A stretch of DNA of 38,284 nt from a virus. Shown here piece by piece: positions 4,008 through 21,422 of the stretch. The stretch lies in UHGV virus genome UHGV-0085204; one strand, given 5' to 3'. The notes beneath the pieces are model-generated. The model ran no database searches. It saw only the letters and a list, made by a program, of their open reading frames with translations, and was not told the origin of the DNA. A program made the position numbers and the translations under genes. Each line of letters opens with the position of its first letter. Position 1 is the first letter of the stretch.

Positions 4008-4105
4008 CTTTCATTAATCCCTGAATTGTTGGTTAATACGCTTGAGGGTGAATGCGAATAATAAAAAAGGAGCCTGTAGCTCCCTGATGATTTTGCTTTT
4101 CATGT

Positions 4106-4387
4106 TCACCGTTCCTTAAAGACGCCGTTTAACATACCGATTGCCAGACTTAAGTGAGTCGGTGTGAATCCCATCAGCGTTACCGTTTCGCGGTGCTTCT
4201 TCAGTACGCTACGGCAAATGTCATCGACGTTTTTATCCGGAAACTGCTGTCTGGCTTTTTTGATTTCAGAATTAGCCTGACGGGCAATACTGCGAAGGGC
4301 GTTTTCTTGCTGAGGTGTCATTGAACAAGTCCCATGTCGGCAAGCATAAGCACACAGAATATGAAGCCCGCTGCCAGAAAAATGCAT
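4106..4387 (-). CDS. Hypothetical protein (lambda orf61 position); start uncertain, may be the internal ATG at 4321
   Basis: ORF in the exo-distal small-gene cluster; no clear RBS. Confidence 0.35.
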   Translation of the reverse strand: MHFSGSGLHILCAYACRHGTCSMTPQQENALRSIARQANSEIKKARQQFPDKNVDDICRSVLKKHRETVTLMGFTPTHLSLAIGMLNGVFKER

Positions 4388-4397
4388 TCAGTGGTTG

Positions 4398-4589
4398 TCA
4401 TACCTGGTCTCTCTCATCTGCTTCTGCTTTCGCCACCATCATTTCCAGCTTTTGTGAAAGGGATGCGGCTAACGTATGAAATTCTTCGTCTGTTTCTACT
4501 GGTATTGGCACAAACCTGACTCCAATTTGAGCAAGGCTATGTGCAATCTCAATGCTCGTTCTTAACTCAACAGGAGATGCTTTGTGCAT
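4398..4589 (-). CDS. Small protein at the lambda orf63 position
   Basis: 63 aa ORF; position and length match lambda orf63. Confidence 0.5.
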   Translation of the reverse strand: MHKASPVELRTSIEIAHSLAQIGVRFVPIPVETDEEFHTLAASLSQKLEMMVAKAEADERDQV

Positions 4590-4750
4590 ACAGCCCCTCG
4601 TTTATTATTTATCTCCTCAGCCAGCCGCTGGGCTTTCAGCGGATTTCGGATAACAGAAAGGCCGGGAAATACCCAGCCTCGCTTTGTAACGGAGTAGACG
4701 AAAGTGATCGCGCCTACCCGGATATTATCGTGAGGATGCTTCATCGCCAT
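4562..4750 (-). CDS. Small protein at the lambda orf60a position
   Basis: 62 aa, ATG start overlapping exo stop. Confidence 0.45.
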
Positions 4751-5421
4751 TGCTCCCCAAATACAAAACCAATTTCAGCCAGTGCCTCGTCCATTTTTTC
4801 GATGAACTCCGGCACCATCTCGTCAAAACTCGCCATGTACTTTTCATCCCGCTCAACCACGACATAATGCAGGCCTTCACGCTTCATACGCGGGTCATAG
4901 TTGGCAAAGTACCAGGCATCTTTTCGCGTCACCCACATGCTGTACTGCACCTGGGCCATGTAAGCCGATTTTATGGCCTCGAAACCACCGAGCCGGAACT
5001 TCATGAAATCGCGGGAGGTAAACGGGCATTTCAGTTCAAGGCCGTTGCCGTCACTGCATAAACCATCGGGAGAGCAGGCGGTGCGCATACTTTCGTCGCG
5101 ATAGATGATCGGGGATTCAGTAACATTCACGCCGGAAGTGAATTCAAACAGGGTTCTGGCGTCGTTCTCGTACTGTTTTCCCCAGGCCAGCGCCTTGGCA
5201 TTAACTTCCGGAGCCACACCGGTGCAAACCTCGGCAAGCAGGGTGTGGAAGTAGGACATTTTCATATCAGGCCATTTCTTTCCGGATCGGGGTTTTGCTA
5301 TTACGTTATGAACTTCTGAAGCTGTGATGACGCCGAGCCGTAATTTGTGCCACGCATCATCCCCCTGTTCGACAGCTCTCACATCGATCCCGGTACGCTG
5401 CAGGATAATGTCCGGTGTCAT
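4741..5421 (-). CDS. exo: Lambda exonuclease (Red alpha)
   Basis: 226 aa; near-identical to my memory of lambda Exo ([40 protein letters not shown]...). Confidence 0.97.
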
Positions 5422-6203
5422 GCAGCCACCTTCTGCTCAGAGGCTTTCTGTTTCAGGAATCCAAGAGCTTTCACTGCTTCGGCCTGTGTCAGTTCTGACG
5501 ATGCGCGAATGTCGCGGCGAAATATCTGGGAACAGAGCGGCAATAAGTCGTCATCCCATGTTTTGTCCAGGGCAATCAGCAGAGTGTTAATCTCCTGCAT
5601 GGTTTCATCGTTAACCGGAGTAATGTCGCGTTCCGGCTGACATTCTGCGGTGTATGCGGTATTTTCGACAATGCGCTCGGCTTCATCCTTGTCATAGATA
5701 CCAGCAAATCCGAAGGCCAGACGGGCACACTGAATCATGGCTTTATGCCGTAACATCCGTTTGGGATGCGACTGCCACGGGCCGGTGATTTCTCTGCCTT
5801 CGCGGGTTTTGAATGGTTCGCGGCGGCATTCATCCATCCACTCGGTAACGCAGATCGGATGATTACGGTCTTTGCGGTAAATCCGGCATGTACAGGATTC
5901 ATTGTCCTGCTCAAAGTCCATGCCATCAAACTGCTGGTTTTCATTGATGATGCGGGACCAGCCATCAACGCCCACCACCGGAACGATGCCGTTCTGCTTA
6001 TCAGGGAAGGCGTAAATTTCTTTCGTCCACGGATTAAGGCCGTACTGGTTGGCGACGATCAGCAATGCGATGAACTGCGCATCGCTGGCATCACCTTTAA
6101 ATGCCGTCTGGCGAAGAGTGGTGATCAGTTCCTGTGGGTCGACAGAATCCATGCCGACACGTTCAGCTAGCTTCCCAGCCAGCGTTGCGAGTGCTGTACT
6201 CAT
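5418..6203 (-). CDS. bet: Lambda Bet (Red beta) single-strand annealing protein
   Basis: 261 aa; matches lambda Bet length and sequence ([26 protein letters not shown]...). Confidence 0.97.
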
Positions 6204-6208
6204 CCGTT

Positions 6209-6505
6209 TTATACCTCTGAATCAATATCAACCTGGTGGTGAGCAATGGTTTCAACCATGTACCGGATGTGTTCTGCCATGCGCTCCTGAAACTCAACAT
6301 CGTCATCAAACGCACGGGTAATGGCTTTTTTGCTGGCCCCGTGGCGTTGCAAATGATCGATGCATAGCGATTCAAACAGGTGCTGGGGCAGGCCTTTTTC
6401 CATGTCTTCTGCCAGTTCTGCCTCTTTCTCTTCACGGGCGATCTGCTGGTAGTGACGCGCCCAGCTCTGAGCCTCAAGACGATCCTGAATGTAATAAGCG
6501 CTCAT
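6209..6505 (-). CDS. gam: Gam host-nuclease (RecBCD) inhibitor, short form
   Basis: 98 aa; matches C-terminal 98 residues of lambda Gam ([18 protein letters not shown]...[10 protein letters not shown]). Confidence 0.9.
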
Positions 6506-6581
6506 GGCTGAACTCCTGAAAATGGCTGTGAAAATAGCGCCCGCGAAATGCCAGGCTGATTAGGAAAACAGGAAAGGGGGG

Positions 6582-6872
6582 TTAGTGATTCAGGCCGTTA
6601 CCGCGTCCGTCGAGAAAAACTTCCACGAGCAAATCACGGGTATAAGTGCGCTCGATGCCGCGATGCAGATAAAGCCGTCCGCGTAAATTAGCTGATGCAG
6701 TCCAGGTACCATCTTTGTGTTTGACCAGCATTCCTGGCATGACCGCGCCGCGATTAACGGTCTGCGTTCCGTAATGTTGATGAACCATAAAAACTCCTGC
6801 CCGTAAGCTGGGCTGCTGAACATATAGAGACTTCTGCGCGTATTCAGGCGGTGGATGGCCGCCGGTTGTCAT
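6582..6872 (-). CDS. Hypothetical protein at the kil/cIII position (start taken at internal ATG MTTGGH)
   Basis: ORF-track start at 6992 is a TTG; internal ATG at 6872 has a GAGG RBS; position downstream of gam in the leftward operon. Confidence 0.4.
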   Translation of the reverse strand: MTTGGHPPPEYAQKSLYVQQPSLRAGVFMVHQHYGTQTVNRGAVMPGMLVKHKDGTWTASANLRGRLYLHRGIERTYTRDLLVEVFLDGRGNGLNH

Positions 6873-7039
6873 AACTAAGCCGCCTCGTTGAAGCGACTGA
6901 GGTATAAAGTGTTGTGTTGATTTCAGCTGGTCACACCGACGTTCACGCGTCCGCTTCACCCCTCGCACTCCCCGGAGCCTGCTGAAATTCAAGCTGCGGA
7001 TCTAAGCGGTCATCGCAACGGTGAATCAGGTGGTTGCCG

Positions 7040-8986: not shown

Positions 8987-9679
8987 CTACCCATGCTTCC
9001 TATACGTCTGCGGCATGCTCCCAATAACCTTACCGAAGATGAACACCCGGTTCATCTCGTCTTTCTCGATCGGGTCCCACGGTGAGTAGCTCTTGTTATC
9101 AGAGATAACCAGCAGCTTATCCTTCATCATTTGCAGACGCTTTACATGGGCTGTGTCGTCGTACAGAAACGCATAGATACCATCACCGTCGAAAGATTTA
9201 ACCGTGATATCAACGAACAGCAGATCACCTGGTTCGATCGTTCCTGACATGCTGTCACCACGCACGTTAATGATGCGGATATTTTCCGCCTTCCTGCCAT
9301 CGAACATGTGACGAGCATCGTCAAACGAGTACTCAACCGAGCGTAGAACTTCTACAAACTCACGGTTGATTACACCCGGCCCGGCACTGACTTCTATATC
9401 AAGAACGTCAATTTTGAAGTATTTGGAATGGCTGACAGCAGGCTTCCCTGATTGTTGACCGTCATTTCTCATCGGGCCTATGCCTGATGAGAGCCATTCT
9501 GTTCGAACACCCAATGCATTAGCTATTTCAACAATTTTTGTTGAGCCGCGCGCGTTGCCGCTTGTCAGTCTCCAGATTGTGGGTTGAGCTACGCCAGACG
9601 CCTTTGCAAGAGCGCCTTGAGACATTCCAGATTGTTCCATCGCTAGGTTTAAGCGATCAGCAAGAGTTTCTTTTTTCAT
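8987..9679 (-). CDS. CI/LexA-like prophage repressor (N-terminal HTH, C-terminal S24 peptidase)
   Basis: 230 aa from ATG at 9679; HTH segment MSQGALAKASGVAQPTIWRL; S24 signature GDSMSGT and downstream lysine (VKRL); ORF-track start at 9715 is a TTG. Confidence 0.9.
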   Translation of the reverse strand: MKKETLADRLNLAMEQSGMSQGALAKASGVAQPTIWRLTSGNARGSTKIVEIANALGVRTEWLSSGIGPMRNDGQQSGKPAVSHSKYFKIDVLDIEVSAGPGVINREFVEVLRSVEYSFDDARHMFDGRKAENIRIINVRGDSMSGTIEPGDLLFVDITVKSFDGDGIYAFLYDDTAHVKRLQMMKDKLLVISDNKSYSPWDPIEKDEMNRVFIFGKVIGSMPQTYRKHG

Positions 9680-9715
9680 AAGTTTTAATTTATACGCTTG
9701 CGTATTGATGGTCAA

Positions 9716-9789: not shown

Positions 9790-10017
9790 ATGACAAATCA
9801 AACCATTCAACTCGCAATCAGTATTACAGGTAGTCAAAAACGACTGGCAGATCTATGCGGTGTAGCCCAACCCACAGTTTGGCGTTGGCTACACGGTGGC
9901 GGAATTGATGCCCGCTATGTAATGAAAATTGTCTCAGCCACTGGTGGAAAGATTAAACCAGCAGATATTCGTCCCGACCTCGCACCATTGTTTAACGCGA
10001 GTAATTCTGCCGCCTAA
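9790..10017 (+). CDS. Cro-like HTH regulator
   Basis: 75 aa from ATG at 9790; HTH LADLCGVAQPTVWRWL; divergent from the repressor. Confidence 0.7.
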   Translation: MTNQTIQLAISITGSQKRLADLCGVAQPTVWRWLHGGGIDARYVMKIVSATGGKIKPADIRPDLAPLFNASNSAA

Positions 10018-10041
10018 ACTGCGGCGTTAACTGATAAGGCA

Positions 10042-10587
10042 ATGACTATGCAACCACTTACATACCAACAGACTAGCGGATTTAGCCCGACTGCGGTGAT
10101 AAATCGTTCTCAAACAAAACAGGCGCCAGGCCACGAAAAAATCCGTGATGCCGTTCGCGCCTGGTCGGCTGCAGATAATCAGGATGTTGTTGCCGCACTC
10201 ATTGTGAATGAGTATCGGGAGCAGGGCGGCGGCACCATCGATTTCCCTGATGATGTCAGTCGTGCACGCCAGAAGCTGTTCCGCTTCCTCGATAACAAAT
10301 TCGATTCTGAAAAATACCGAAATAACGTGCGTGAACTGACCCCGGCAATTCTGGCGGTACTACCGCTGGAATATCGCGGCCACCTGGTTGAGCAGGATAG
10401 CTACATGGCTCGGCTGGCTGAAATGGAAAAGGAACTCAGTGAGGCAAAACAGGCTGTCATTCTCAACGCACCACGCCACCAGAAACTGAAGGAGATGAGT
10501 GAAGGCATTGTGTCGATGTTTCGTGTGGACCCGGATCTGGCTGGTCCACTGATGGCGATGGTCACCACCATGCTGGGGGCAATATGA
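10042..10587 (+). CDS. CII-position regulatory protein (YdaT-like, from memory)
   Basis: 181 aa between cro and O; no lambda CII similarity, assignment is positional. Confidence 0.4.
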   Translation: MTMQPLTYQQTSGFSPTAVINRSQTKQAPGHEKIRDAVRAWSAADNQDVVAALIVNEYREQGGGTIDFPDDVSRARQKLFRFLDNKFDSEKYRNNVRELTPAILAVLPLEYRGHLVEQDSYMARLAEMEKELSEAKQAVILNAPRHQKLKEMSEGIVSMFRVDPDLAGPLMAMVTTMLGAI

Positions 10588-10673
10588 CAGGTTCGGAAAT
10601 GGCGAAAGCCGGTCTGCGCGAACAGAACCGACTTTCAGGTGCAAATCGTAACACACTCATTGCGGGAGGAATT

Positions 10674-11603
10674 ATGGCAAACACTGCTGAGATATTCAAT
10701 TTTCCAGTGCCGGATGCGGCACAAAAGGAGCCGCGCGTGGCAGATCTCGATGATGGTTATACGCGCATTGCAAATGAGTTGCTGGAAGCTGTGATGCTGG
10801 CCGGATTAACACAGCACCAGCTTCTGGTCTTCCTGGCTGTCATGCGCAAAACATATGGCTTTAATAAAAAACTGGATTGGGTGAGCAACGAGCAACTTTC
10901 CGAGTTGACCGGGATATTGCCGCACAAGTGTTCTGCTGCAAAAAGTGTTCTGGTAAAGCGTGGGATTTTTATTCAGAGCGGGCGGAATATCGGCATTAAT
11001 AATGTGGTCAGTGAATGGTCAACATTACCCGAATCAGGTAAGAAAAATAAAGTTTACCTGAAAGAGGTAAATTTACCTGAATCAGGTAAGAAAAGTTTAC
11101 CCAAATCAGGTAAAGGCACTTACCCGAATCAGGTAAACACAAAAGACAAACTAACAAAAGACAATATAAAACCTTTTTCGTCCGAGAATTCTGGCGAATC
11201 CTCTGACCAGCCAGAAAACGACTTTCCTGTGGAGAAACGGGATGCTGCAATTCAGAGCGGCAGCAAGTGGGGGACAGCAGAAGACCTGACCGCCGCAGAG
11301 TGGATGTTTGACATGGTGAAGACCATCGCGCCCTCAGCCAGAAAACCGAATTTTGCAGGGTGGGCTAACGATATCCGCCTGATGCGTGAACGTGACGGAC
11401 GTAACCACCGCGACATGTGCGTGCTGTTCCGCTGGGCATGCCAGGACAACTTCTGGTCAGGTAACGTGCTGAGTCCGGCCAAACTCCGCGACAAGTGGAC
11501 CCAACTCGAAATCAACCGTAACAAGCAACAGGCTGGCGTGACAGCCGGAAAATCAAAACTCGACCTGACAAACACTGACTGGATTTACGGGGTGGATTTA
11601 TGA
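10674..11603 (+). CDS. O: Replication initiator O (lambda O-like)
   Basis: ATG at 10674 with GGAGG RBS; N-terminus ADLDDGYTRIANELLEA close to lambda O; iterons inside the gene. Confidence 0.9.
   Translation: MANTAEIFNFPVPDAAQKEPRVADLDDGYTRIANELLEAVMLAGLTQHQLLVFLAVMRKTYGFNKKLDWVSNEQLSELTGILPHKCSAAKSVLVKRGIFIQSGRNIGINNVVSEWSTLPESGKKNKVYLKEVNLPESGKKSLPKSGKGTYPNQVNTKDKLTKDNIKPFSSENSGESSDQPENDFPVEKRDAAIQSGSKWGTAEDLTAAEWMFDMVKTIAPSARKPNFAGWANDIRLMRERDGRNHRDMCVLFRWACQDNFWSGNVLSPAKLRDKWTQLEINRNKQQAGVTAGKSKLDLTNTDWIYGVDL
11023..11140 (+). repeat. Replication origin iterons (four copies of about 18 bp CCNRAATCAGGTAAR) inside the O gene
   Basis: Direct repeats read at 11026-11042, 11083-11099, 11101-11116, 11121-11137, followed by A-rich segment ACAAAAGACAAACTAACAAAAGACAATATAAAACC. 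Confidence 0.75.
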
Positions 11604-12301
11604 AAAACATCGCCGCACAGATGGTTAACTTTGACCGTGAGCAGATGCGCCGGATCGCCAACAACATGCCGGAACAGTACGACGAAAAGCCGCAGGTACA
11701 GCAGGTAGCGCAGATCATCAACGGTGTGTTCAGCCAGTTACTGGCAACTTTCCCGGCGAGCCTGGCTAACCGTGACCAGAATGAACTGAACGAAATCCGC
11801 CGCCAGTGGGTTCTGGCTTTCCGGGAAAACGGGATCACCACAATGGAACAGGTTAACGCAGGAATGCGCGTAGCCCGTCGGCAGAATCGACCATTCCTGC
11901 CATCACCCGGGCAGTTTGTCGCCTGGTGCCGGGAAGAAGCATCCGTTAACGCCGGGCTGCCAAACGCCAGCGAGCTGGTTGATATGGTTTACGAGTATTG
12001 CCGGAAGCGTGGCCTTTATCCGGATGCAGAGTCTTATCCATGGAAATCAAACGCGCATTACTGGTTGGTTACCAACCTGTATCAGAACATGCGGGCCAAT
12101 GCGCTGACTGATGCGGAATTACGGCGCAAGGCTGCCGATGAACTGACTTGTATGACCGCGCGAATTAATCGTGGTGAGGCGATACCTGAACCAGTAAAAC
12201 AACTTCCTGTCATGGGCGGTAGACCACTTAACCGGGCTCAGGCTCTGGCGAAGATCGCAGAAATCAAAGCTAAGTTCGGACTGAAAGGAGCCAGTGTATG
12301 A
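11600..12301 (+). CDS. P: Replication protein P (DnaB loader)
   Basis: 233 aa, near-identical to my memory of lambda P (MKNIAAQMVNFDREQMRRIANNMPEQYDEKPQ...). Confidence 0.97.
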   Translation: MKNIAAQMVNFDREQMRRIANNMPEQYDEKPQVQQVAQIINGVFSQLLATFPASLANRDQNELNEIRRQWVLAFRENGITTMEQVNAGMRVARRQNRPFLPSPGQFVAWCREEASVNAGLPNASELVDMVYEYCRKRGLYPDAESYPWKSNAHYWLVTNLYQNMRANALTDAELRRKAADELTCMTARINRGEAIPEPVKQLPVMGGRPLNRAQALAKIAEIKAKFGLKGASV

Positions 12302-12591
12302 CAGGCAAAGAGGCAATTCTTCACTACCTGAAAACGCACCGGACTTTCTGCGCGCCGGATGTAGCTGCGGCAACAGGCGTGACTGTAACCAGCATCAATC
12401 AGGCAGCAGCCAAAATGGCACGGGCAGGAATCCTGGTCGTTGATCGCAAGGTCTGGCGAACGGTGTATTACCGGTTCGCTACCAGGGAGGAGCGGGAAGG
12501 AAAGGTGAGCACGAACCTGATTTTCAAGGAGTGTCGCCAGAGTGCCGTGATGAAACGGGTATTGATGTTTTGGGGGAGGGTAGGGGTATAA
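12298..12591 (+). CDS. ren: Ren exclusion protein
   Basis: 97 aa, matches lambda Ren (MTGKEAI.HYL.TH..FCAPDVAA.TG.TVTSINQAAAKMARAG). Confidence 0.9.
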   Translation: MTGKEAILHYLKTHRTFCAPDVAAATGVTVTSINQAAAKMARAGILVVDRKVWRTVYYRFATREEREGKVSTNLIFKECRQSAVMKRVLMFWGRVGV

Positions 12592-12879
12592 GCGAAACGT
12601 TATGAGTGTGTGGGTATTCGTGCCATTGCGATGTGGTAGAGAGTGCTGAGGGCGTCATGGTTGTGTTGCGAAAACTACGTTGCACTTGAGCAGGATCTTG
12701 CAGAATTTGAGCGCGAGTTCCGTGTTGCTGATGCGACTATACCCTCGATGTAGAGGAACTTAATTAGCTGATTGTAATTCAATATGCCTACTAAGACCGG
12801 TTGGGTATGAACTAGTAAAGGCTGCAAAATCCTATAGAGTGTTAACGCAACCAAAAACGTTAAGCACGGAGAAAAAAAT

Positions 12880-13632
12880 ATGGATCCTAAATTACTGTAT
12901 GCCACGTTTAAACGAAATGACGCACCAGCTTGGCGCTGCCCGAACTGTATGAATGAAACACTGGAGATTGTCGCTGATAGTTTTGTAGAAACTGATTCAA
13001 GCGCAACAACTCAGTTTAGAGATGAAGTATGGTTTGATGAGGAAATGTCGGGAGGAGTATTCAGTTGCGTGCTGCGCTGTACCCGCCAAGCCTGCCAGGA
13101 GAAGGTTGCTTTGTCTGGGCAGGTTGTTGCTGTAGAATGCTTCAATGACGAAATGACGGAGCGTTGGTATGTTTCTGGTTTCCGTCCTAAGTATTTCTAT
13201 CCACCACTTCCTCTATTCCTGTTTCCTGAAAAGTGCCCTGAAGATATAGCTGATCTCTTGGCGGAAGTATCAGCTCTGATCCCCTCGCACCCAGCTTCAG
13301 CGGTGAACACCATGAGAACCATACTGGAGATGATGCTTGATAGTCTTGATGTACCAAGAGAGAAAACAGTTAAAGGCAAGATAATACGTCTTTCTACGCA
13401 TGAAAGAATCACAAATTATTCAGATAAACTGGGACCAAATAAAGATGCATTCATGGCGTTAAAGTGGTTGGGGAATCACGGCAGTCATGGAGGGATTAAA
13501 GTCACAAGGTCCTCTATTAATGATGCCTGCATTCTCATTGGTCATTTGATTGACTTCTTATTCTTAGAAAGCCCGGATGTAACTATTCATATTGAACGGA
13601 TAAACAACGTGTATGCACCCAAAAAGGAGTAA
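12880..13632 (+). CDS. Zinc-ribbon plus DUF4145/HEPN-like domain protein (cargo)
   Basis: 250 aa; N-terminal CPNC...C..C; C-terminal KWLGNHGSHGG fits my memory of the DUF4145 R..GN...HG motif with K for R; AT-rich by eye. Confidence 0.5.
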   Translation: MDPKLLYATFKRNDAPAWRCPNCMNETLEIVADSFVETDSSATTQFRDEVWFDEEMSGGVFSCVLRCTRQACQEKVALSGQVVAVECFNDEMTERWYVSGFRPKYFYPPLPLFLFPEKCPEDIADLLAEVSALIPSHPASAVNTMRTILEMMLDSLDVPREKTVKGKIIRLSTHERITNYSDKLGPNKDAFMALKWLGNHGSHGGIKVTRSSINDACILIGHLIDFLFLESPDVTIHIERINNVYAPKKE

Positions 13633-13643
13633 AACGTAACGCC

Positions 13644-13892
13644 ATGTCGAAGCGGAATATTGCCGCTAAAACACAAGAAGAGCGCGAGAAGGTTAACGTT
13701 GACCTTGCTGTCTCCTGAGTTACCTACAAAGAGCACCTTAATATACCGGTTATTGCCGAAGCGGTGATGCGTGAGCAGCCTGAGCATTTGCGGGACTATT
13801 TTTTGGAGCGGCCACGACATTACCGCGAGCAGAGCATCGCGCTGCCCAAGGCATCCGCTCCTCGACATCTTAAGCAGGAAGGTGAAAAATGA
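13644..13892 (+). pseudogene. Small ORF interrupted by an in-frame TGA (13716-13718); downstream part ends in ATGA overlap with the next gene
   Basis: ATG 13644 ...AVS TGA VTYKEH...MREQPEHL...QEGEK stop at 13890-13892; same frame throughout. Confidence 0.3.
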
Positions 13893-14371
13893 TAAGTGCA
13901 GAAGGACTGCAGCGGTTACTTAATTTATCGGAGCCTCCATCTGATGAACTGATTGATGTTTATCTTCAATTCTGCATGATTTTTCCTAGGGTCGAGCAAA
14001 GTTTTTTTGGTGGCTTTGCTAAGGGGGAAGACAGTTTAAATTATGCGCGAACGTTACTTGACGCCGGGATAAAGGTGCCCAACGAACTTTTTCACGATTT
14101 TAAGCAGAGATACATTTTGAATGGGGATGCGCAGGAAAGACTTGACGCCCTCTGTGTCGGTCGAGAGAGAGATAGGCGGGGAATAGTTAATGGACTTCAA
14201 AATGACGCAGCAACAGATCTAAACACCATGTCTACAGTATTAAAGATAGTTATAAGGATAAGAAATAACCTTTTCCACGGAAATAAAGACGCTTATCTTT
14301 TTGTTGATTCTCAAGAGCAAGCGCAACTATTGAGGTGGTGCGTGAGATTTCTCCAAGGATTATTAAATTAA
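13889..14371 (+). CDS. HEPN-like hypothetical protein (cargo)
   Basis: 160 aa; RBS GGAAGGTG; C-terminal IRIRNNLFHGN contains an R-x4-H (HEPN-type) motif; AT-rich by eye. Confidence 0.45.
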   Translation: MISAEGLQRLLNLSEPPSDELIDVYLQFCMIFPRVEQSFFGGFAKGEDSLNYARTLLDAGIKVPNELFHDFKQRYILNGDAQERLDALCVGRERDRRGIVNGLQNDAATDLNTMSTVLKIVIRIRNNLFHGNKDAYLFVDSQEQAQLLRWCVRFLQGLLN

Positions 14372-14560
14372 TCTACCTTTGATTTTCCATAATCAACCAG
14401 CAATAATAATGTCACCGGAGCCTGAACAACATCGGTGACTTCTGCGCTAAACGGGGACGTTTATGCGCACATACAATCCAAACTCTCTTCTCCCTTCACA
14501 GATGCAGAGATGCACCTGCGATTTTTTGCATCCAGCGTTTGACCTCTGCGGAGGTGAAGC

Positions 14561-15016
14561 GTGAACCTCCCACAAGACGGCATCAAATTGCATCGTGGTA
14601 ACTTCACCGCTATCGGCCAGCAGATCCAGCCTTATCTGGAGGAAGGCAAATGCTTTCGCATGGTGCTTAAACCGTGGCGTGAGAAACGCAGTCTTTCCCA
14701 GAATGCACTCAGCCACATGTGGTACAGCGAAATCAGTGAATACCTCATCAGCAGGGGTAAAACGTTCGCCACTCCAGCTTGGGTAAAAGATGCTCTCAAA
14801 CACACATATCTCGGTTATGAAACCAAAGACCTGGTTGATGTCGTAACCGGTGAGATCACCACTATCCAGTCGTTACGCCATACCTCCGATCTTGATACCG
14901 GAGAGATGTATATCTTCCTGTGTAAGGTTGAAGCCTGGGCGGTGAATATTGGCTGCCACCTGACTATTCCGCAGAGCTGCGAGTTCCAGCTGCTCCGCGA
15001 CAAGCAGGAGGCGTAA
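14561..15016 (+). CDS. NinB-family protein (DLP12 YbcN-like)
   Basis: 151 aa; GTG start with GGAGG RBS; [16 protein letters not shown] motif; position at start of nin region. Confidence 0.7.
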
Positions 15017-15186
15017 TGGCTACACCGCTTATTCGTGTCATGAACGGACACATCTACAGAGTATCAAATCGTCGTAAGCGTAAGCCTGAGCTGAAGCCAT
15101 CCGAAATACCAACACTGCTCGGATATACCGCTAGCCTGGTTGATAAAAAATGGTTGCGACTGGCAGCAAGGAGGAATCATGGCTGA
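15016..15186 (+). CDS. ninE: NinE-like small protein (below ORF-track size cutoff)
   Basis: 56 aa; ATG overlapping upstream TAA (TAATG); C-terminus YTASLVDKKWLRLAARR resembles NinE. Confidence 0.65.
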   Translation: MATPLIRVMNGHIYRVSNRRKRKPELKPSEIPTLLGYTASLVDKKWLRLAARRNHG

Positions 15187-15469
15187 TTTGAGAAAAGCAG
15201 CGCGTGGTCGGGAATGCCAGGTAAGAATCCCAGGCGTATGTAATGGCAACCCTGAAACGTCTGTACTGGCACATATCCGGCTGACTGGATTGTGCGGCAC
15301 CGGTACGAAACCGCCAGACCTGATTGCCACCATTGCATGTTCTGCCTGCCACGACGAAATCGACCGCCGCACGCATTTTGTTGACGCTGGATATGCAAAA
15401 GAATGCGCGCTGGAAGGTATGGCGAGAACGCAGGTTATCTGGCTGAAAGAGGGGGTAATTAAGGCGTGA
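15179..15469 (+). CDS. DUF1364-family protein (DLP12 YbcO-like), cysteine-rich
   Basis: 96 aa from ATG at 15179; cysteine motifs CQVRIPGVC and CSACHDEID. Confidence 0.65.
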
Positions 15470-15828
15470 ATACTTACCACATCACACTACCCTGGCCGCC
15501 GAGCAATAACCGCTACTACCGCCATAATCGAGGGCGCACGCACATCAGCGCAGAAGGGCAGGCATACCGCGATAACGTCGCCCGAATCATTAAAGGCTCA
15601 ATGCTGGATATCGGTCTGGCTATGCCTGTGAAAATCCGCATTGAGTGCCACATGCCGGATCGCCGTCGCCGTGACCTGGATAATCTGCAAAAGGCCGCTT
15701 TTGACGCACTCACCAAAGCGGGTTTCTGGCTGGATGATGCTCAGGTCGTTGATTACCGCGTTGTGAAGATGCCCGTTACCAAAGGTGGAAAGCTGGAGCT
15801 GACCATCACTGAACTGGGAGATGAATGA
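15466..15828 (+). CDS. rusA: Holliday junction resolvase RusA
   Basis: 120 aa; matches RusA of DLP12 ([25 protein letters not shown]). Confidence 0.95.
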
Positions 15829-15965
15829 TGTTTGAGTCTTATATGGCAGAACGTCTTCGCCACCGCTGGATGCGCCTGCGCTTATATCGTTTCCCCGGTT
15901 CTGTTTTGACCGATTACCGAATACTGAAGAATTACGCCAAAACACTGACAGGAGCAGGAGTATGA
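15825..15965 (+). CDS. YlcG-like small basic protein (below ORF-track size cutoff)
   Basis: 46 aa ORF, ATGA overlap with rusA stop; same position and size as DLP12 ylcG. Confidence 0.45.
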
Positions 15966-16050
15966 AGTCAGAGATAACAATCAACTAATACTGTTTTGTT
16001 GATTTTTGCTTGTAATTGGCGTTCTGGTCTGAGTTTTGTGGAGTAAGTTG

Positions 16051-16428
16051 ATGCGTGATATTCAGATGGTTCTTGAGCGTTGGGGAGCGTGGGCGGCTAA
16101 TAATCATGAAGATGTGACCTGGTCGTCCATTGCCGCCGGTTTTAAGGGATTAATTCCTTCAAAAGTAAAATCTCGCCCACAATGTTGTGACGATGACGCG
16201 ATGATCATTTGCGGGTGCATGGCCCGTCTGAAAAAGAACAACAGCGATTTGCATGATTTATTGGTGGACTATTATGTCGGCGGCATGACTTTTATGGCGC
16301 TTGCACGTAAGCATGGGCGATCTGATTGTTGGGTTGGCAGGATGCTCCAGAAAGCTGAGGGCGTAGTGGAGGGTATGCTGATGGTGTTGGATCTCCGATT
16401 GGAGATGGATGCTGATTGTTCGAAATAA
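16051..16428 (+). CDS. Late-gene antiterminator Q (DLP12 QuuD/phage 21-82 type)
   Basis: 125 aa from ATG at 16051 with GGAGTAAG RBS; cysteine cluster [12 protein letters not shown]; followed by terminator tR'. Confidence 0.75.
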
Positions 16429-16429
16429 T

Positions 16430-16526
16430 TAAAGGAAAAGTTGCTGTCTGATTGTCATTAGTCTAACATTTTAAATGTTGGAATCGCAACGTAGTTATTA
16501 TCATATAACAGCTTGTTTCCTGATTT
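16430..16526 (+). promoter_or_regulatory. Candidate late promoter PR' / qut region
   Basis: Between Q stop and a strong terminator; possible -35 TTGCTG and -10 TAACAT with 17-bp spacing (weak match). Confidence 0.3.
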
Positions 16527-16555
16527 AGCCAGCCTCTCCAAAGGCTGGTTTTTTC
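16527..16555 (+). terminator. Rho-independent terminator (tR'-like): AGCCAGCC..GGCTGG stem, T7 run
   Basis: AGCCAGCCTCTCCAAAGGCTGGTTTTTT. Confidence 0.7.
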
Positions 16556-16582
16556 TAATAAGTATTATTTCGAGTAGGGATT

Positions 16583-17107
16583 TTATTGTTTAACCCATAA
16601 TAATTCATTGACATTGAATCCCAACTTTTGAGCGGTTCGCACATAGTCTGCTTTTACTTTATCTGGAATAGTTGGGGTCCTTGCCAGAATCCATAGGTAT
16701 TCTCTGTTCGGACCACTGACAAGAGCATACTTATACTCATCATCCAGTTTGATTACATTATAGCCACCATAGAAGGGGCCAAAAAACGAAACCTTCAACG
16801 CTGCAGTTTTAGTATCTCCAGTAAAGTATGCTTTACCTTCGCTCTCGCTCCATTTATTTTTCGTTGGATCGTATCCACGGTTAAGTACACGAATCCCTCC
16901 GTCGTTCCGTTTTCCATAAGTAGCGCTGACCTGTTCCAGACCACGTTCGAACCGGTTCTCGAGGCGAGCTATTTCATACCATTTTCCGAGGTAGCGGTTG
17001 GCGTCAAAATTTGTAATCGGCTGCACACCTTTAGGTGGTGTCGGGGCCTTACATGCTATAAGAGTGAAAGAGAGTGCAATGCCAGTCAACACAGGCCATA
17101 ACTTCAT
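16583..17107 (-). CDS. Outer-membrane lipocalin lipoprotein, Blc-like (moron)
   Basis: 174 aa; lipobox LIAC after signal peptide; GKWYEIAR and FFGPFYGGYNVI motifs shared with E. coli Blc. Confidence 0.9.
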   Translation of the reverse strand: MKLWPVLTGIALSFTLIACKAPTPPKGVQPITNFDANRYLGKWYEIARLENRFERGLEQVSATYGKRNDGGIRVLNRGYDPTKNKWSESEGKAYFTGDTKTAALKVSFFGPFYGGYNVIKLDDEYKYALVSGPNREYLWILARTPTIPDKVKADYVRTAQKLGFNVNELLWVKQ

Positions 17108-17299
17108 AATAAATCCTGTACTTTTGATAGTTGAGAGTAAGTATGAAAGATAGATGATTACGACCGATCACTTAAAGAACTTTCATACTATATTAGGAAT
17201 AGTCCATAACAGAAAAATTGTCAGTGATGACGCCAGAAAGGCAATTTATTCCGTGCATTACACAGTTTATGTGTTAATGAATTAGTCAAGGGGGAGAAT

Positions 17300-18259
17300 A
17301 TGATAAAAAAACCTGTGATTGGAATCAGCGGTTGTTTGACCGGTTCTGCTGTTCGTTTTGATGGTGGTCACAAAAGAGCTGACTTTTTAATGGACAAATT
17401 AGTGGAATGGGTAACATTCAGACCAGTATGTCCAGAAATGGCTATAGGGCTGCCAGTTCCGCGTCCTGCTCTACGTCTTGTGCGCTCGACGCAAGGAAAT
17501 ATACGGATGTGTTTTAGCCACGACCAGAATGAGGATGTGACAGAGAGAATGACAGAGTTTAGTCGTTCTTATATGAACAAATTAAAGGATGTATCGGGGT
17601 TTGTGGTTTGTGCTAAATCTCCCAGCTGTGGCATGGAGCGCGTGCGTGTCTATGATGAAAATGGTAATCGAGGTCGTAAAGATGGAGTGGGACTATTTAC
17701 GAGCACTTTGATGGAAAAGTTTTCCTGGCTACCGGTTGAAGAGGATGGGCGATTACATGATCCAGTGCTTCGTGAGAATTTTGTTGAAAGAGTTTTTGCT
17801 TTGCATGAGCTCAATCATCTTTACAAGGAGAAATTATCAAGAAGAGAGTTATTAGCTTTTCATAGTCGTTATAAGCTTCAGTTATTGGCGCATAGTCAGG
17901 CAGGCTATAAAGATATGGGACCATTTGTGGCTGCAATACACGAGTGGGCGGACCTTGAATCATACTTTGAGGTGTATCGTGATAAGCTGATGGCGATTCT
18001 CAGAAAACCTGCATCACGTAAAAATCACACGAATGTGCTGATGCATATACAGGGGTATTTTAGTAACTACTTAAGTACACGCCAGCGTAAAGAGTTGAGC
18101 GAGGTTATACTTAACTATCGTTCTGGCACATTACCTCTTCTTGCGCCGTTGACTCTGCTGAAGCATTATCTGGGTGAGTATCCTAATGATTACTTGCTTA
18201 CACAGAATTACTTCGATCCCTATCCGGACGAACTGGCTCTAAGACTGATGGTAAATTAA
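17300..18259 (+). CDS. YbgA-like protein (DUF523 + DUF1722, from memory) (moron)
   Basis: 319 aa; GGGGGAG RBS; N-terminal GISGCLTG cysteine-containing region. Confidence 0.65.
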   Translation: MIKKPVIGISGCLTGSAVRFDGGHKRADFLMDKLVEWVTFRPVCPEMAIGLPVPRPALRLVRSTQGNIRMCFSHDQNEDVTERMTEFSRSYMNKLKDVSGFVVCAKSPSCGMERVRVYDENGNRGRKDGVGLFTSTLMEKFSWLPVEEDGRLHDPVLRENFVERVFALHELNHLYKEKLSRRELLAFHSRYKLQLLAHSQAGYKDMGPFVAAIHEWADLESYFEVYRDKLMAILRKPASRKNHTNVLMHIQGYFSNYLSTRQRKELSEVILNYRSGTLPLLAPLTLLKHYLGEYPNDYLLTQNYFDPYPDELALRLMVN

Positions 18260-18608
18260 TTGTATGCGATATCATCCAAAAGGATGAGTTCCTGCATGCA
18301 GGATATTTACAATCGTAAAAACTACACTATGATACCCAGAGTGTCAGTTTGTATAAAAACTCTGTTTACGCTGAAGAAACCATTGAGATGCAACTTAAAG
18401 TTGGTAAACATGCCAGTCAAAATATAATATTATGATTCCACGCAGCTATATATAATATAACAGATTGGTTTAATAATTTGTCTTTGTGAGTTAAATACAT
18501 AATTTTATACTTGTGATGCAATGAGATTTTCCTTATTGTTGAACTGGCGAATATTGATTTTCCACCTATACTTACCTGGTGTAACCTCAATGATATCAGG
18601 TGGATAAT

Positions 18609-19355
18609 ATGCCATACATATGTTCTATCATTTTGGTGTTGAACTCGTTTGATGCCCGAATTGGTAAAGAAGATATTTTGTTTAAAAAAGGAAGTGCTGT
18701 TCTCATTGATTACAATTTAAAAGATTTTTTTTCATCAAATATAGATCATGTAATGATCGTAGATGTTGAAGAGAAAACAGTTAATGATTTCTTTAAAAGC
18801 AACACACTCTCACCTTTTTCTGTAAGAAGGTTTTATCCGGCATACTTGATGGTGGAATGTGAAGATTTTTCATTGTTAAAGAACTTGATTGCATGCTTGA
18901 ATTGTGATGGCAGAACTGTGGATTTTGTTAGAAATCAAATATCACTTGCATGTCTTGCTATCTTATCTTCAGAGAAAATAGTGCAAAGTTTTTTATTTGG
19001 ATGTCTTAATAGTTTAGGAAGTAAAGTTAAGGCTATTATTCACACGGATATATCTGCAGCATGGAGACTTTGTGATATATCTTCAAGACTGTATCTGAGT
19101 GAAAGTCTGTTAAAAAGAAAATTAAAGCACGAAGGCTTATCATTTAGTAAGTTAATTCTTGAAGAGCGAATGGTGATGGCGGAAAGGTTATTAAGCTACA
19201 ATTTATATTCTGTTGGAAAAGTTGCTGAGATATGCGGTTATGAAAATACGTCATATTTTGTAAGTGTTTTCAGAAGATATTTTGGTGTTCCTCCCCATCA
19301 ATATTCATCAAGATTTTTTTTAGAAAAAGACATGATGTCACGTGATACGTTTTAA
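18609..19355 (+). CDS. AraC/XylS-family transcriptional regulator, AT-rich (moron)
   Basis: 248 aa from ATG 18609 (AGGTGG RBS); C-terminal HTH TSYFVSVFRRYFGVPPHQY typical of AraC family; long AT-rich leader. Confidence 0.85.
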   Translation: MPYICSIILVLNSFDARIGKEDILFKKGSAVLIDYNLKDFFSSNIDHVMIVDVEEKTVNDFFKSNTLSPFSVRRFYPAYLMVECEDFSLLKNLIACLNCDGRTVDFVRNQISLACLAILSSEKIVQSFLFGCLNSLGSKVKAIIHTDISAAWRLCDISSRLYLSESLLKRKLKHEGLSFSKLILEERMVMAERLLSYNLYSVGKVAEICGYENTSYFVSVFRRYFGVPPHQYSSRFFLEKDMMSRDTF

Positions 19356-19402
19356 TGATTTTGTAATTTTCGTATTTGATAATTGTATGATGCTTTCAGC
19401 TA

Positions 19403-19433
19403 CGCCAGAATAATCGCTGGCGTTTTTCTTTTT
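19403..19433 (+). terminator. Rho-independent terminator after AraC gene
   Basis: CGCCAG aataat CTGGCG stem followed by TTTTTCTTTTT. Confidence 0.6.
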
Positions 19434-19528
19434 GAATAGATGTTCAAGCCTTACGCTAATGTAACTTCTATACCTTTCCTCTTCGTTCCGAACCGTGTAC
19501 ACCATCCGTTATTTGCGGAGGTGAGGCT

Positions 19529-19744
19529 ATGAAATCCATGGATAAGTTAACAACGGGCATTGCCTACGGCACCTCCGCAGGCAGTGCTGGCTACTGGTTT
19601 TTACAGCTGCTCGATAAAGTCACGCCCTCACAGTGGGCAGCAATAGGTGTGCTGGGTAGCTTGGTATTTGGCCTGCTGACGTACCTGACAAACCTTTATT
19701 TCAAGATTAAAGAAGATAAGCGCAAGGCTGCGAGAGGTGAATAA
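19529..19744 (+). CDS. Class II holin (phage 21 S21-type pinholin) with dual-start motif
   Basis: 71 aa; MKSMDK dual start (ATG at 19529 and 19538); [16 protein letters not shown] matches S21. Confidence 0.9.
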
Positions 19745-20241
19745 TGCCTCCATCATTACGAAAAGCTGTTGCTGCTGCTATTGGTGGCGGGGCTATTGCT
19801 ATAGCATCTGTGTTAATCACTGGCCCAAGTGGTAACGATGGTCTGGAAGGTGTGAGACATAATCCTTACAAAGACATAGTTGGTGTATGGACTGTATGTT
19901 ACGGACACACCGGAAAAGACATTATGCTCGGTAAAACGTATACCGAAGCAGAATGCAAAGCCCTCCTGAATAAAGACCTTGCCACGGTCGCCAGACAAAT
20001 TAACCCGTACATCAAAGTCGATATACCGGAAACAACGCGCGGCGCTCTTTACTCGTTCGTCTACAACGTGGGTGCTGGCAATTTCAGAACATCGACGCTT
20101 CTTCGCAAAATAAACCAGGGCGATATCAAAGGCGCATGTGATCAGCTACGGCGCTGGACATACGCTGGCGGTAAGCAATGGAAAGGTCTCATGACTCGTC
20201 GTGAGATTGAGCGTGAAATCTGTTTGTGGGGTCAGCAATGA
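19744..20241 (+). CDS. SAR endolysin (lysozyme, R21-like)
   Basis: 165 aa; N-terminal Gly/Ala-rich weakly hydrophobic SAR segment [18 protein letters not shown]; lysozyme core. Confidence 0.9.
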
Positions 20242-20696
20242 ACAGAGTAACCGCGATTATCTCCGCTCTGGTTATCTGCATCATCGTCTGCCTGTCATGG
20301 GCTGTTAATCATTACCGTGATAACGCAATCGCCTACAAAGAGCAGCGCGATAACAAGGCCAGTGAACTGGAGAAGGCGAACGCCACCATCGCTGACATGC
20401 GGAAGCGTCAACGTGATGTAGCAGAACTCGACGCAAGATACACAAAGGAGCTTGCTGATGCTAACGCGACTATCGAAAGTCTCCGTGCTGATGTTTCTGC
20501 TGGGCGTAAGCGCCTGCAAGTCGCCGCCACCTGTGCAAAGTCAACGACCGGAGCCAGCGGCATGGGCGATGGAGAAAGCCCAGGACTTACAGCAGATGCT
20601 GAACTCAATTATTACCGTCTCCGAAGTGGAATCGACAGGATAACCGCGCAGGTTAACTACCTGCAGGAGTACATCAGGACGCAATGTCTGAAATAA
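20238..20696 (+). CDS. Rz i-spanin
   Basis: ATG overlapping endolysin stop (ATGA); N-terminal TM helix then coiled-coil. Confidence 0.8.
20458..20643 (+). CDS. Rz1 o-spanin lipoprotein embedded in +1 frame of Rz
   Basis: Lipobox LLGVSAC followed by proline-rich [13 protein letters not shown]. Confidence 0.7.
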
Positions 20697-20900: not shown

Positions 20901-21422
20901 ATGAATATCGTGCCACTTAATTACAAAGGTGAAATTGTCAGTTTCAACACTGATGGTTGGATCAACGTCACAGGTGTTGCTGAGAGATTTGGGAAACGCA
21001 TTGATAACTGGATGCGTTTGGCAGAAACGCTTGAATACGTTCGTGCTTTAGACGAAGCGTTGACCGGGAAAGAATCTCAAATTTTACATCCCTCACAATC
21101 GAGGTATGTAAAAACCAGCAAGGCACGAAAGGACAGGGGTGGTGGTACGTGGCTACATCCAAAACTTTCAGTTGCATTTGCCCGTTGGTGTGATGCTCGT
21201 TTTGCTGTGTGGTGCGACCTGCACATTGATAGTCTGCTTCGCGGTGAACTGACTGAGCAGCAGAAATATGAGCAAGCATGTCGCATTCGCGATGACCGGA
21301 AATCAAAAGCCAGCAATGGGGCAAGAGAGATGGCTCGCTGGCGATGGGATAAGCCGGTTATTGAAGCAAATGTTGAGTACTGGCGCGAGCAACTGCAGTT
21401 GACTCTCGATATCGCGTGCTGA
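20901..21422 (+). CDS. KilA-N domain protein
   Basis: 173 aa; GWINVTGVAERFGKR...WLHPKLSVAFARWCDARF typical of KilA-N/APSES-like domain. Confidence 0.6.
   Translation: MNIVPLNYKGEIVSFNTDGWINVTGVAERFGKRIDNWMRLAETLEYVRALDEALTGKESQILHPSQSRYVKTSKARKDRGGGTWLHPKLSVAFARWCDARFAVWCDLHIDSLLRGELTEQQKYEQACRIRDDRKSKASNGAREMARWRWDKPVIEANVEYWREQLQLTLDIAC

Follow-up and report, generated by a model that had tools for sequence, protein, structure and literature searches.

A probably mosaic cargo module with lipocalin, predicted tRNA desulfidase and AraC-type regulator genes between antiterminator Q and the holin of a P22-like Escherichia coli prophage

The interval between the antiterminator gene Q and the holin gene of lambdoid phages can house cargo, and the question arises what such cargo is, where it comes from and what it might do for the lysogen. 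We address this question for the virus genome UHGV-0085204, a stretch of DNA of 38,284 nucleotides (the window). The whole window (1-38284) is a nearly complete P22-like prophage which bears a DLP12-like nin-Q-lysis block, and its host is Escherichia coli. An original prediction, made from the letters of the DNA, had placed three non-phage genes between Q and the holin and had interpreted them as a moron, that is, a lysogenic-conversion cassette. Domain matches and the flanking Q and S21 holin genes locate all three genes where they had been predicted. They code for a lipocalin (blc), for a protein which we assign to the RudS family (rudS) and for an AraC-family regulator (termed araC here). 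We suggest, with a probability of roughly 0.75, that the cassette is a mosaic lysogenic-conversion module assembled from two sub-units of separate origin in the Q-to-holin slot of a P22-like lambdoid prophage. The first sub-unit, the divergent pair blc-rudS, would have been captured from a chromosome of the Enterobacteriaceae and the second, the AT-rich gene of the AraC-family regulator, would be a separate acquisition.

We begin with the slot. The antiterminator gene is found on the plus strand at 16051..16428 and its product belongs to the Q21 family (Pfam Phage_antitermQ, E = 2.5e-51; PDB Q21 chains, E = 1.9e-8). The start at 16051 is the RefSeq-style one and yields a protein of 125 aa, which is 87.5% identical to QuuD of DLP12; the mechanically called open reading frame begins with a TTG at 16036. 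On the other side the lysis cassette starts with the gene of an S21/EssD-type (P21-type) holin (19529..19744, plus strand; Pfam Phage_holin_2_1) whose product is 98.6% identical to EssD of K-12, followed by the genes for lysozyme (19744-20241; Pfam Phage_lysozyme) and Rz (20226-20696; Pfam Phage_lysis). With the K-12 cryptic prophage DLP12 and with the cultured phage ev243 the window shares 91-94% identity in the nin-Q and lysis blocks. When the window is aligned to DLP12 and ev243 by blastn, homology extends from 14378/15800 to 16410 and again from 19518 to 20507, with none in between. The left breakpoint at 16410 lies 18 nt before the stop codon of Q, thus the final 18 nt of Q are part of the exchangeable module (16411..19517), and the right breakpoint at 19518 lies 11 nt before the start of the holin gene. 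What DLP12 and ev243 hold between these same breakpoints is nmpC/ompD, a minus-strand porin gene. The module of the window and the nmpC/ompD modules have no 12-mer or longer word in common in the case of ev243 and a single 12-mer in the case of DLP12. Related phages therefore carry alternative cargo at an identical site, which makes the Q-to-S interval a slot for exchangeable cargo. Since the homology stops at 16410 and resumes at 19518 with a porin gene in between, the cassette genes are not core genes of this phage lineage. The objection which the original prediction had raised against itself, namely that the three genes might be conserved lineage genes, is thereby answered, and the moron reading gains support.

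The module is not tied to one type of phage. The order Q-blc-rudS-araC-S is present in the P22-like window, in the lambda-like Jouyvirus 1H12, in a Qin-like prophage, where it is flanked by hokD-rem-ydfU and essD-ydfR-rrrQ, and in a degraded thrW prophage. With the nmpC/ompD moron of DLP12 and its relatives the cassette shares the position with exactly the same breakpoints, and with the stx genes of Stx phages it shares the location between Q and the holin; genes and functions differ in both cases.

The middle gene, rudS (17300..18259, plus strand, 43% guanine plus cytosine (GC)), runs sense to late transcription and codes for a protein of 319 aa. This protein had been described as YbgA-like with a cysteine-containing N-terminal region. 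The cysteines are indeed there and the likeness to YbgA holds for the C-terminal half, but the protein taken as a whole is, judged by its domains and conserved residues, RudS, a tRNA 4-thiouridine (s4U) desulfidase. By definition (Jamontas et al. 2024, PMC11417400) RudS combines a TudS [4Fe-4S] desulfidase with a DUF1722 domain in a single polypeptide, and precisely this fusion is found: Pfam 2-thiour_desulf (DUF523) covers residues 7-149 (E = 3.6e-40) and DUF1722 residues 192-309 (E = 1.8e-40). Similarity to E. coli YbgA is confined to the C-terminal half, where 49% of 152 aligned residues are identical; with 191 bits the protein stays below the cutoff of 237 of the NCBIfam YbgA model. As stand-alone YbgA had no effect on s4U (PMC11417400), the label YbgA-like misses the catalytic half of the protein. 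All three cluster-binding cysteines, Cys12, Cys44 and Cys110, numbered as in Table 1 of PMC11417400, are present, and Cys12 and Cys44 align to Cys10 and Cys43 of TudS. Also the catalytic residues are in place as C44-P-E46, S107-P-S109-C110 and R55; mapped by eye from the same offsets to the cysteines and not by structural alignment, E46, S107, S109 and R55 correspond to Glu51, Ser111, Ser113 and Arg60 of RudS_KT.

The assignment is reinforced by a close relative that has been assayed. The window protein is 92.8% identical (23 differing residues) to gp66 of Escherichia phage 1H12 (NC_049947), which is RudS_vir, one of six RudS enzymes tested by Jamontas et al.; RudS_vir lowers the s4U content of tRNA when overexpressed in E. 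coli, and the cluster-binding cysteines are conserved in RudS_vir and RudS_ST (PMC11417400). Both proteins have 319 aa, the DUF523 and DUF1722 fusion and Cys12/44/110, and in the Q-S interval both genes have blc on one side and the AraC gene on the other. The cassettes themselves are 90% identical at the DNA level and form separate allele groups. In general RudS strips the sulfur from s4U in tRNA; overexpression in E. coli reduced tRNA s4U 4.7- to 26-fold, and overexpression of Pseudomonas RudS reduced the growth delay induced by ultraviolet A light (UVA) (PMC11417400). The same study states that E. coli is without RudS. This is true for K-12 and not for the roughly one fifth of the complete E. 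coli genomes which possess the module (see below). In BL21(DE3), the expression host of the RudS study, a Qin-type remnant (NZ_CP081489.1, locus 4622-6168) retains the same Q, an intact phage lipocalin gene and about the first 49 codons of rudS, and O-antigen genes (wbbD etc.) directly follow the rudS stump.

The lipocalin gene blc (16583..17107, 44% GC) is situated on the minus strand, antisense to late transcription, and encodes 174 aa. That it specifies a Blc-like lipoprotein with an LIAC lipobox was foreseen correctly. The protein matches Pfam Lipocalin_2 (E = 7e-44), reaches 316 bits with the NCBIfam model for outer membrane lipoprotein Blc (cutoff 267) and matches the PDB entries of E. 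coli Blc with E = 3.5e-69. Its N-terminus reads MKLWPVLTGIALSFTLIAC-K, with the lipobox L16-I-A-C19 after a hydrophobic signal segment. The residue at position +2 is Lys20 and not aspartate, which, read directly from the sequence without a dedicated predictor, agrees with sorting to the outer membrane. From the lipobox and the 60% identity to E. coli Blc we infer that the phage protein is an outer-membrane lipoprotein lipocalin. It appears, however, not to be derived from the E. coli gene. E. coli Blc (b4149; PDB 1QWD/2ACO/3MBT) shares the Lipocalin_2 fold family, the lipobox, a similar length and a score above the NCBIfam Blc cutoff, but the identity to K-12 Blc amounts to 59.8% only, compared with 80-82% to the rudS-linked lipocalins of Enterobacter cloacae and Citrobacter sedlakii; the rudS-linked lipocalin occurs in Enterobacter, Leclercia and C. 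sedlakii, and the linkage to ampC that marks the chromosomal E. coli gene is missing. By these comparisons the phage lipocalin is the orthologue of a second, rudS-linked lipocalin and neither an orthologue of the ampC-linked blc nor, as had been envisaged, its prophage paralogue.

Where does the pair come from? We scanned one genome per species for chromosomal RudS. Homologues with 67-77% identity occur in Citrobacter, Enterobacter, Kluyvera, Leclercia, Klebsiella, Pectobacterium and relatives, and a homologue of the phage lipocalin stands divergently upstream of rudS in 42 of 62 chromosomal loci of other Enterobacteriaceae. A distance of about 1.4 kb separates the two genes in most loci of Enterobacter and Leclercia. 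The E. cloacae locus (4021-6960), the only one that was annotated, has a gene for an MlrA-like MerR regulator and a transthyretin-family gene between lipocalin and rudS. In C. sedlakii (locus 5292-6960) the lipocalin and rudS genes are directly divergent with a gap of 188 bp, compared with 192 bp in the window; the intergenic DNA of the window cannot be aligned to that of C. sedlakii. The chromosomal synteny and the 80-82% identity to the rudS-linked lipocalins suggest that blc and rudS were captured together as a unit from an Enterobacteriaceae chromosome and without the MerR/MlrA-type regulator. A recent donor was not identified among the scanned genomes, as the most similar chromosomal RudS (Citrobacter amalonaticus) is 77% identical and the most similar linked lipocalin 82%. 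A homologue of the AraC gene was found in none of the chromosomal rudS loci, and the GC content of araC is much lower than that of the pair, which points to a separate acquisition of araC.

The word lipocalin is absent from the text of PMC11417400, so that the linkage between lipocalin and rudS appears not to have been noted there. One could go further and take blc-rudS as a near-UV or light stress module that was caught, without its repressor, by a UV-inducible prophage, is constitutive in lysogens and yields Q-boosted RudS after induction, its chromosomal linkage marking an undescribed photoprotective regulon. We put this forward as a speculation which is improbable as a whole. If it were true, about one fifth of the E. 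coli strains would be less prone to s4U-dependent growth arrest by UVA, the Q-driven boost of RudS would preserve the chargeability of tRNA and hold down the stringent response while late proteins are made, and the linkage of lipocalin, rudS and an MlrA-like MerR gene would mark such a regulon in the Enterobacteriaceae.

The third gene, araC (18609..19355, plus strand), codes for an AraC/XylS-family regulator of 248 aa. Translation most likely starts at the ATG at 18609, which is preceded by the Shine-Dalgarno sequence AGGTGG 5 nt upstream; we prefer this start because homologous proteins begin with MPYICS or MPCICS, the mechanical open reading frame starting from a GTG at 18600 (251 aa). The C-terminus contains the double helix-turn-helix of the family (Pfam HTH_18, E = 1.2e-14; HTH_AraC, E = 2.2e-11) and matches the DNA-binding domain of GadX in the PDB (E = 1.7e-20). 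The suggestion in the original prediction that this might be a regulator of the PatE/Psr type proved apt. Identity is 53% over 235 aa to PatE (Sakai ECs_0287) and 48% over 159 aa to PsrA (ECs_1087) as annotated, or 39% over 235 aa when PsrA is lengthened to an upstream in-frame start; to GadW, YdeO and AppY it is 32-34% over the full length, from residue 1 onward. A further relative, P0013, is 64% identical. In an alignment of 12 sequences of the clade Cys5 is invariant and Ser6 nearly so, which argues for homology of the N-terminal domain as well, and the first recognition helix, SESLLKRKLK, is identical in the window protein and PatE. None of the named regulators is an equivalog in NCBIfam (YdeO 130 bits, cutoff 348; GadX 86 bits, cutoff 500). 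Thus, judged from these alignments, the protein is a distinct, uncharacterised lineage within the PatE/Psr/GadW/YdeO/AppY clade. Among the four alleles of the cassette which we compared (window, IdasGreatGrand, YZ3E2001 and 1H12) the C-terminal tail varies: 248 aa in the window (ending EKDMMSRDTF, 19341-19355), 243 aa and thus 5 shorter in IdasGreatGrand and 1H12, and 237 aa in YZ3E2001.

Acid resistance of the host is what the characterised members of the clade act on. Both PatE and PsrB are activators of hdeA and gadE, and by inducing gadE PsrA represses type III secretion (reviewed in PMC10877973); AppY directly activates gadE, gadY and nhaR (PMC10057817). PatE (Z0321/ECs_0287, from CP-933H/Sp1), PsrA and PsrB are AraC-like activators of the GAD acid-resistance system carried by prophages of E. 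coli O157:H7. PatE and PsrA have the size and architecture of the window protein and also its N-terminal motif M-x-x-x-C-S-[VI]-I. Given the homology to PatE and the identical first recognition helix, we infer that the window regulator most likely activates the acid-fitness island of the host (gadE, hdeA). The differences from PatE are that patE sits at the right end of its prophage whereas araC occupies the Q-S slot, and that the window protein is a separate lineage with predicted targets. The K-12 proteins AppY, YdeO and GadW belong to the same clade and are much more distant. AppY is a direct gadE activator, and its gene is AT-rich and borne by DLP12, but at the far end of that prophage and not next to Q. 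PsrA resembles the window regulator in its placement between Q and lysis genes: in Sakai Sp4 its gene is downstream of the antiterminator and upstream of the tRNA genes ileZ-argN-argO and the lysis genes. P0013 directly follows a lambda-type Q (PF03589). A position adjacent to Q thus appears to recur in the PatE/Psr-like clade, to which the cassette adds a third lineage with genes next to Q, and a change in acid resistance brought about by the regulator is conceivable for many commensal and clinical strains.

A further observation concerns the site of PatE. The ES9 carrier prophage (4648-31863) is integrated at thrW, which is also the site of Sakai Sp1/CP-933H (9984-19845), the prophage encoding PatE. 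The right ends of the ES9 prophage and of Sakai Sp1 both contain pinE and the gene of a 257-aa protein (ECs_0285; annotated with a LEM-3-like GIY-YIG domain in ES9), and in ES9 IS5/IS1 stand where PatE would come next.

How might the three genes be transcribed? The GC content is 32% for araC (26% at third codon positions) and likewise 32% for its leader, against 47% for the whole window. The regulator gene had been expected to have an AT-rich leader and a terminator of its own; the leader is seen, and so is a terminator-like hairpin. The leader (18260..18608, plus strand) comprises 349 nt and contains the promoter-like sequence TTTACA-16-TATGAT at 18306-18333 on the plus strand, with 10 of 12 matches to the consensus, in a block that is invariant in the four alleles. 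If this block is a promoter, the 5′ untranslated region of araC would be about 270 nt long. A second promoter-like site at 18401-18428 is missing from 1H12. Downstream of araC, a terminator-like hairpin with T-run is found at 19402..19433 on the plus strand (7-bp stem, 5 GC pairs, TTTTCTTTTT tail). A similar structure follows Q at 16527..16556 on the plus strand (9-bp stem, 5 GC pairs, TTTTCT tail) and is a candidate for tR', the terminator of a short late leader transcript; the segment 16470-16560 folds with -24.7 kcal/mol (z = -4.33 versus shuffled controls). The divergent intergenic region between blc and rudS (17108..17299, 192 bp, 33% GC) is conserved among the phage alleles. It is the presumed location of both promoters and contains a single weak promoter-like sequence (17131-17158, plus strand). 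Searching the whole window with Rfam at gathering thresholds returned no RNA family, so that neither the AT-rich leader nor the post-Q hairpin corresponds to a curated RNA.

We suggest that the module works in the following way. In the lysogen blc, rudS and araC would be transcribed from their own promoters. The AT-rich araC may be subject to silencing by H-NS, as is typical of prophage-borne AraC regulators in enteric bacteria. RudS would revert 4-thiouridine at position 8 of tRNA to uridine, and the smaller s4U pool would leave the cell with less near-UV-sensitive tRNA and a milder growth arrest under UVA. The AraC-family regulator could bind the AT-rich promoters of the acid-fitness island (gadE, hdeA), counteract their silencing and activate acid resistance. 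Upon induction, polymerase modified by Q would pass both putative terminators on its way to the lysis genes; rudS and araC would thereby be read in the sense direction, blc in the antisense direction.

Several observations weigh against this proposal. The late promoter is its weakest link. In Stx phages the dependence of stx on pR' and Q has been demonstrated, whereas for the cassette neither the late promoter nor a Q-binding element was located, as a promoter scan just after Q was unconvincing and the comparison with nmpC/ompD modules that have a near-identical Q did not reveal them either. That the cassette lies downstream of pR' is thus an assumption modelled on lambda and the Stx phages. 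A consensus promoter scan found no minus-strand promoter-like site for blc, and promoter-like matches in the region are not more numerous than in shuffled sequences (14 versus 12.2 ± 3.7). RudS_vir is less active on tRNA than the other RudS proteins despite good expression, and the tests were by overexpression only (PMC11417400). The regulon of the AraC protein may differ from that of its relatives, considering the identity of 53% to PatE and the score of 130 against 348 bits with the YdeO model. Finally, insertions of the insertion sequences (IS) IS1, IS2, IS3 and IS5 and truncations are frequent within the cassette, which suggests that it is dispensable in many hosts.

Alternatively, rudS and araC might chiefly be auxiliary genes of the lytic phase: RudS made under antitermination by Q would erase the s4U of host tRNA, sustain translation and damp the stringent response after the inducing UV light. 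The two genes do lie between Q and the lysis genes and are co-oriented with both, the repressor has an S24 autocleavage domain so that the prophage is probably inducible by SOS or UV, and overexpression of RudS diminishes the UVA growth delay. We nevertheless consider a mainly lytic role improbable. A porin gene can replace the module without loss of viability, as phages of the ev243/DLP12 type have been cultured; blc runs against the direction of late transcription; araC possesses a conserved promoter-like block and a terminator-like hairpin; and tRNA that is already cross-linked is not repairable by erasing s4U.

Still less probable is in our view that the AraC protein regulates the cassette or the late and lysis genes of the phage locally rather than the acid-resistance genes of the host. 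Such a role would fit with its place beside blc-rudS, a pair which has lost its native MerR/MlrA-type regulator, and with the Q-adjacent position in three independent lineages. But Q-adjacent homologues occur without blc-rudS (PsrA in Sp4; P0013), all characterised members of the clade (PatE, PsrA, PsrB, AppY, YdeO, GadW/X) target host promoters of the gadE/hdeA type, and PatE has the very same first recognition helix.

The distribution of the cassette and its pattern of substitution are in line with a lysogenic-conversion module. Of 5426 complete E. coli genomes 1156 match the cassette, 992 of them over at least 80% of its length. With a 3.8-kb query consisting of the cassette and its Q and holin flanks, twelve phage records reach a coverage of at least 80%, namely IdasGreatGrand (98.1% identical) and eleven records of infant-gut lambdoid phages (about 90%). 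From the four alleles we calculated the ratio of nonsynonymous to synonymous divergence (dN/dS), which is 0.07-0.29 for blc, 0.11-0.22 for rudS and 0.19-0.26 for araC. Synonymous divergence (dS) among the alleles reaches 0.6, with the open reading frames intact in all four. Thus, the three cassette genes are under purifying selection, and low ratios at such synonymous divergence argue against inert, decaying DNA. That the cassette is hitch-hiking DNA which decays in prophage remnants, as one might conclude from the frequent IS1/IS2/IS3/IS5 insertions, the truncated copies in BL21(DE3) and SRY149 and the many degraded prophages among the carriers, is hence very unlikely in view of the intact reading frames in four alleles with dS up to 0.6 and dN/dS of 0.07-0.29, the occurrence in plaque-forming phages and the activity of the RudS_vir protein.

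The copy in SRY149 (4992-5689) could be mistaken for an ancestral stage with blc and rudS only. We rejected this idea, as an IS1 element replaces araC between rudS and essD, which indicates secondary loss and not an ancestral form. A role in anti-phage defence was likewise dropped, since PADLOC models match none of the three proteins. In PHROGs all three fall into phage families of unknown function (phrog_2809, 3275 and 1450), which confirms that they recur in phages and adds no function. Two short contigs (JARKOR01) of a 'Candidatus Nanosynbacter' metagenome-assembled genome encode the cassette as well (Q, blc, rudS, araC and holin; 94-100% protein identity). These contigs are almost certainly binning contamination.

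Parts of this picture are already known. Deposited phages already contain the cassette, and of its three genes two have appeared in print, either noted or assayed; blc was earlier listed as a moron in more than half of the infant-gut lambdoid phages (Mathieu et al. 2020, PMC6969025). Added here are the chromosomal synteny of blc and rudS, the exact boundaries of the module, its prevalence and the placement of the regulator. The 'YbgA family protein' of about 1000 complete E. coli genomes would accordingly be an eraser of a tRNA modification, of which a 92.8%-identical orthologue has been assayed. The module is no new kind of system, and what still invites experiments is the regulator, along with the part that a tRNA eraser carried by a prophage plays in physiology.

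The remainder of the window is in keeping with a P22-like prophage. On the minus strand we recognised an integrase (50-1210) and the repressor with its S24 peptidase domain (8987-9715). Further recognised parts of the window are a replication O protein, a KilA-N protein, terminase, P22 portal and P22 coat proteins and a tailspike head-binding domain. A gene for a DUF4145 protein of 250 aa (12880-13632) separates the replication genes from the nin region, at a site that often houses accessory or defence genes in lambdoid phages. The gene of the KilA-N domain protein (173 aa, 20901-21422) comes directly after Rz. At this position IdasGreatGrand has a gene annotated as anti-repressor, and DLP12 has bor in the opposite orientation.

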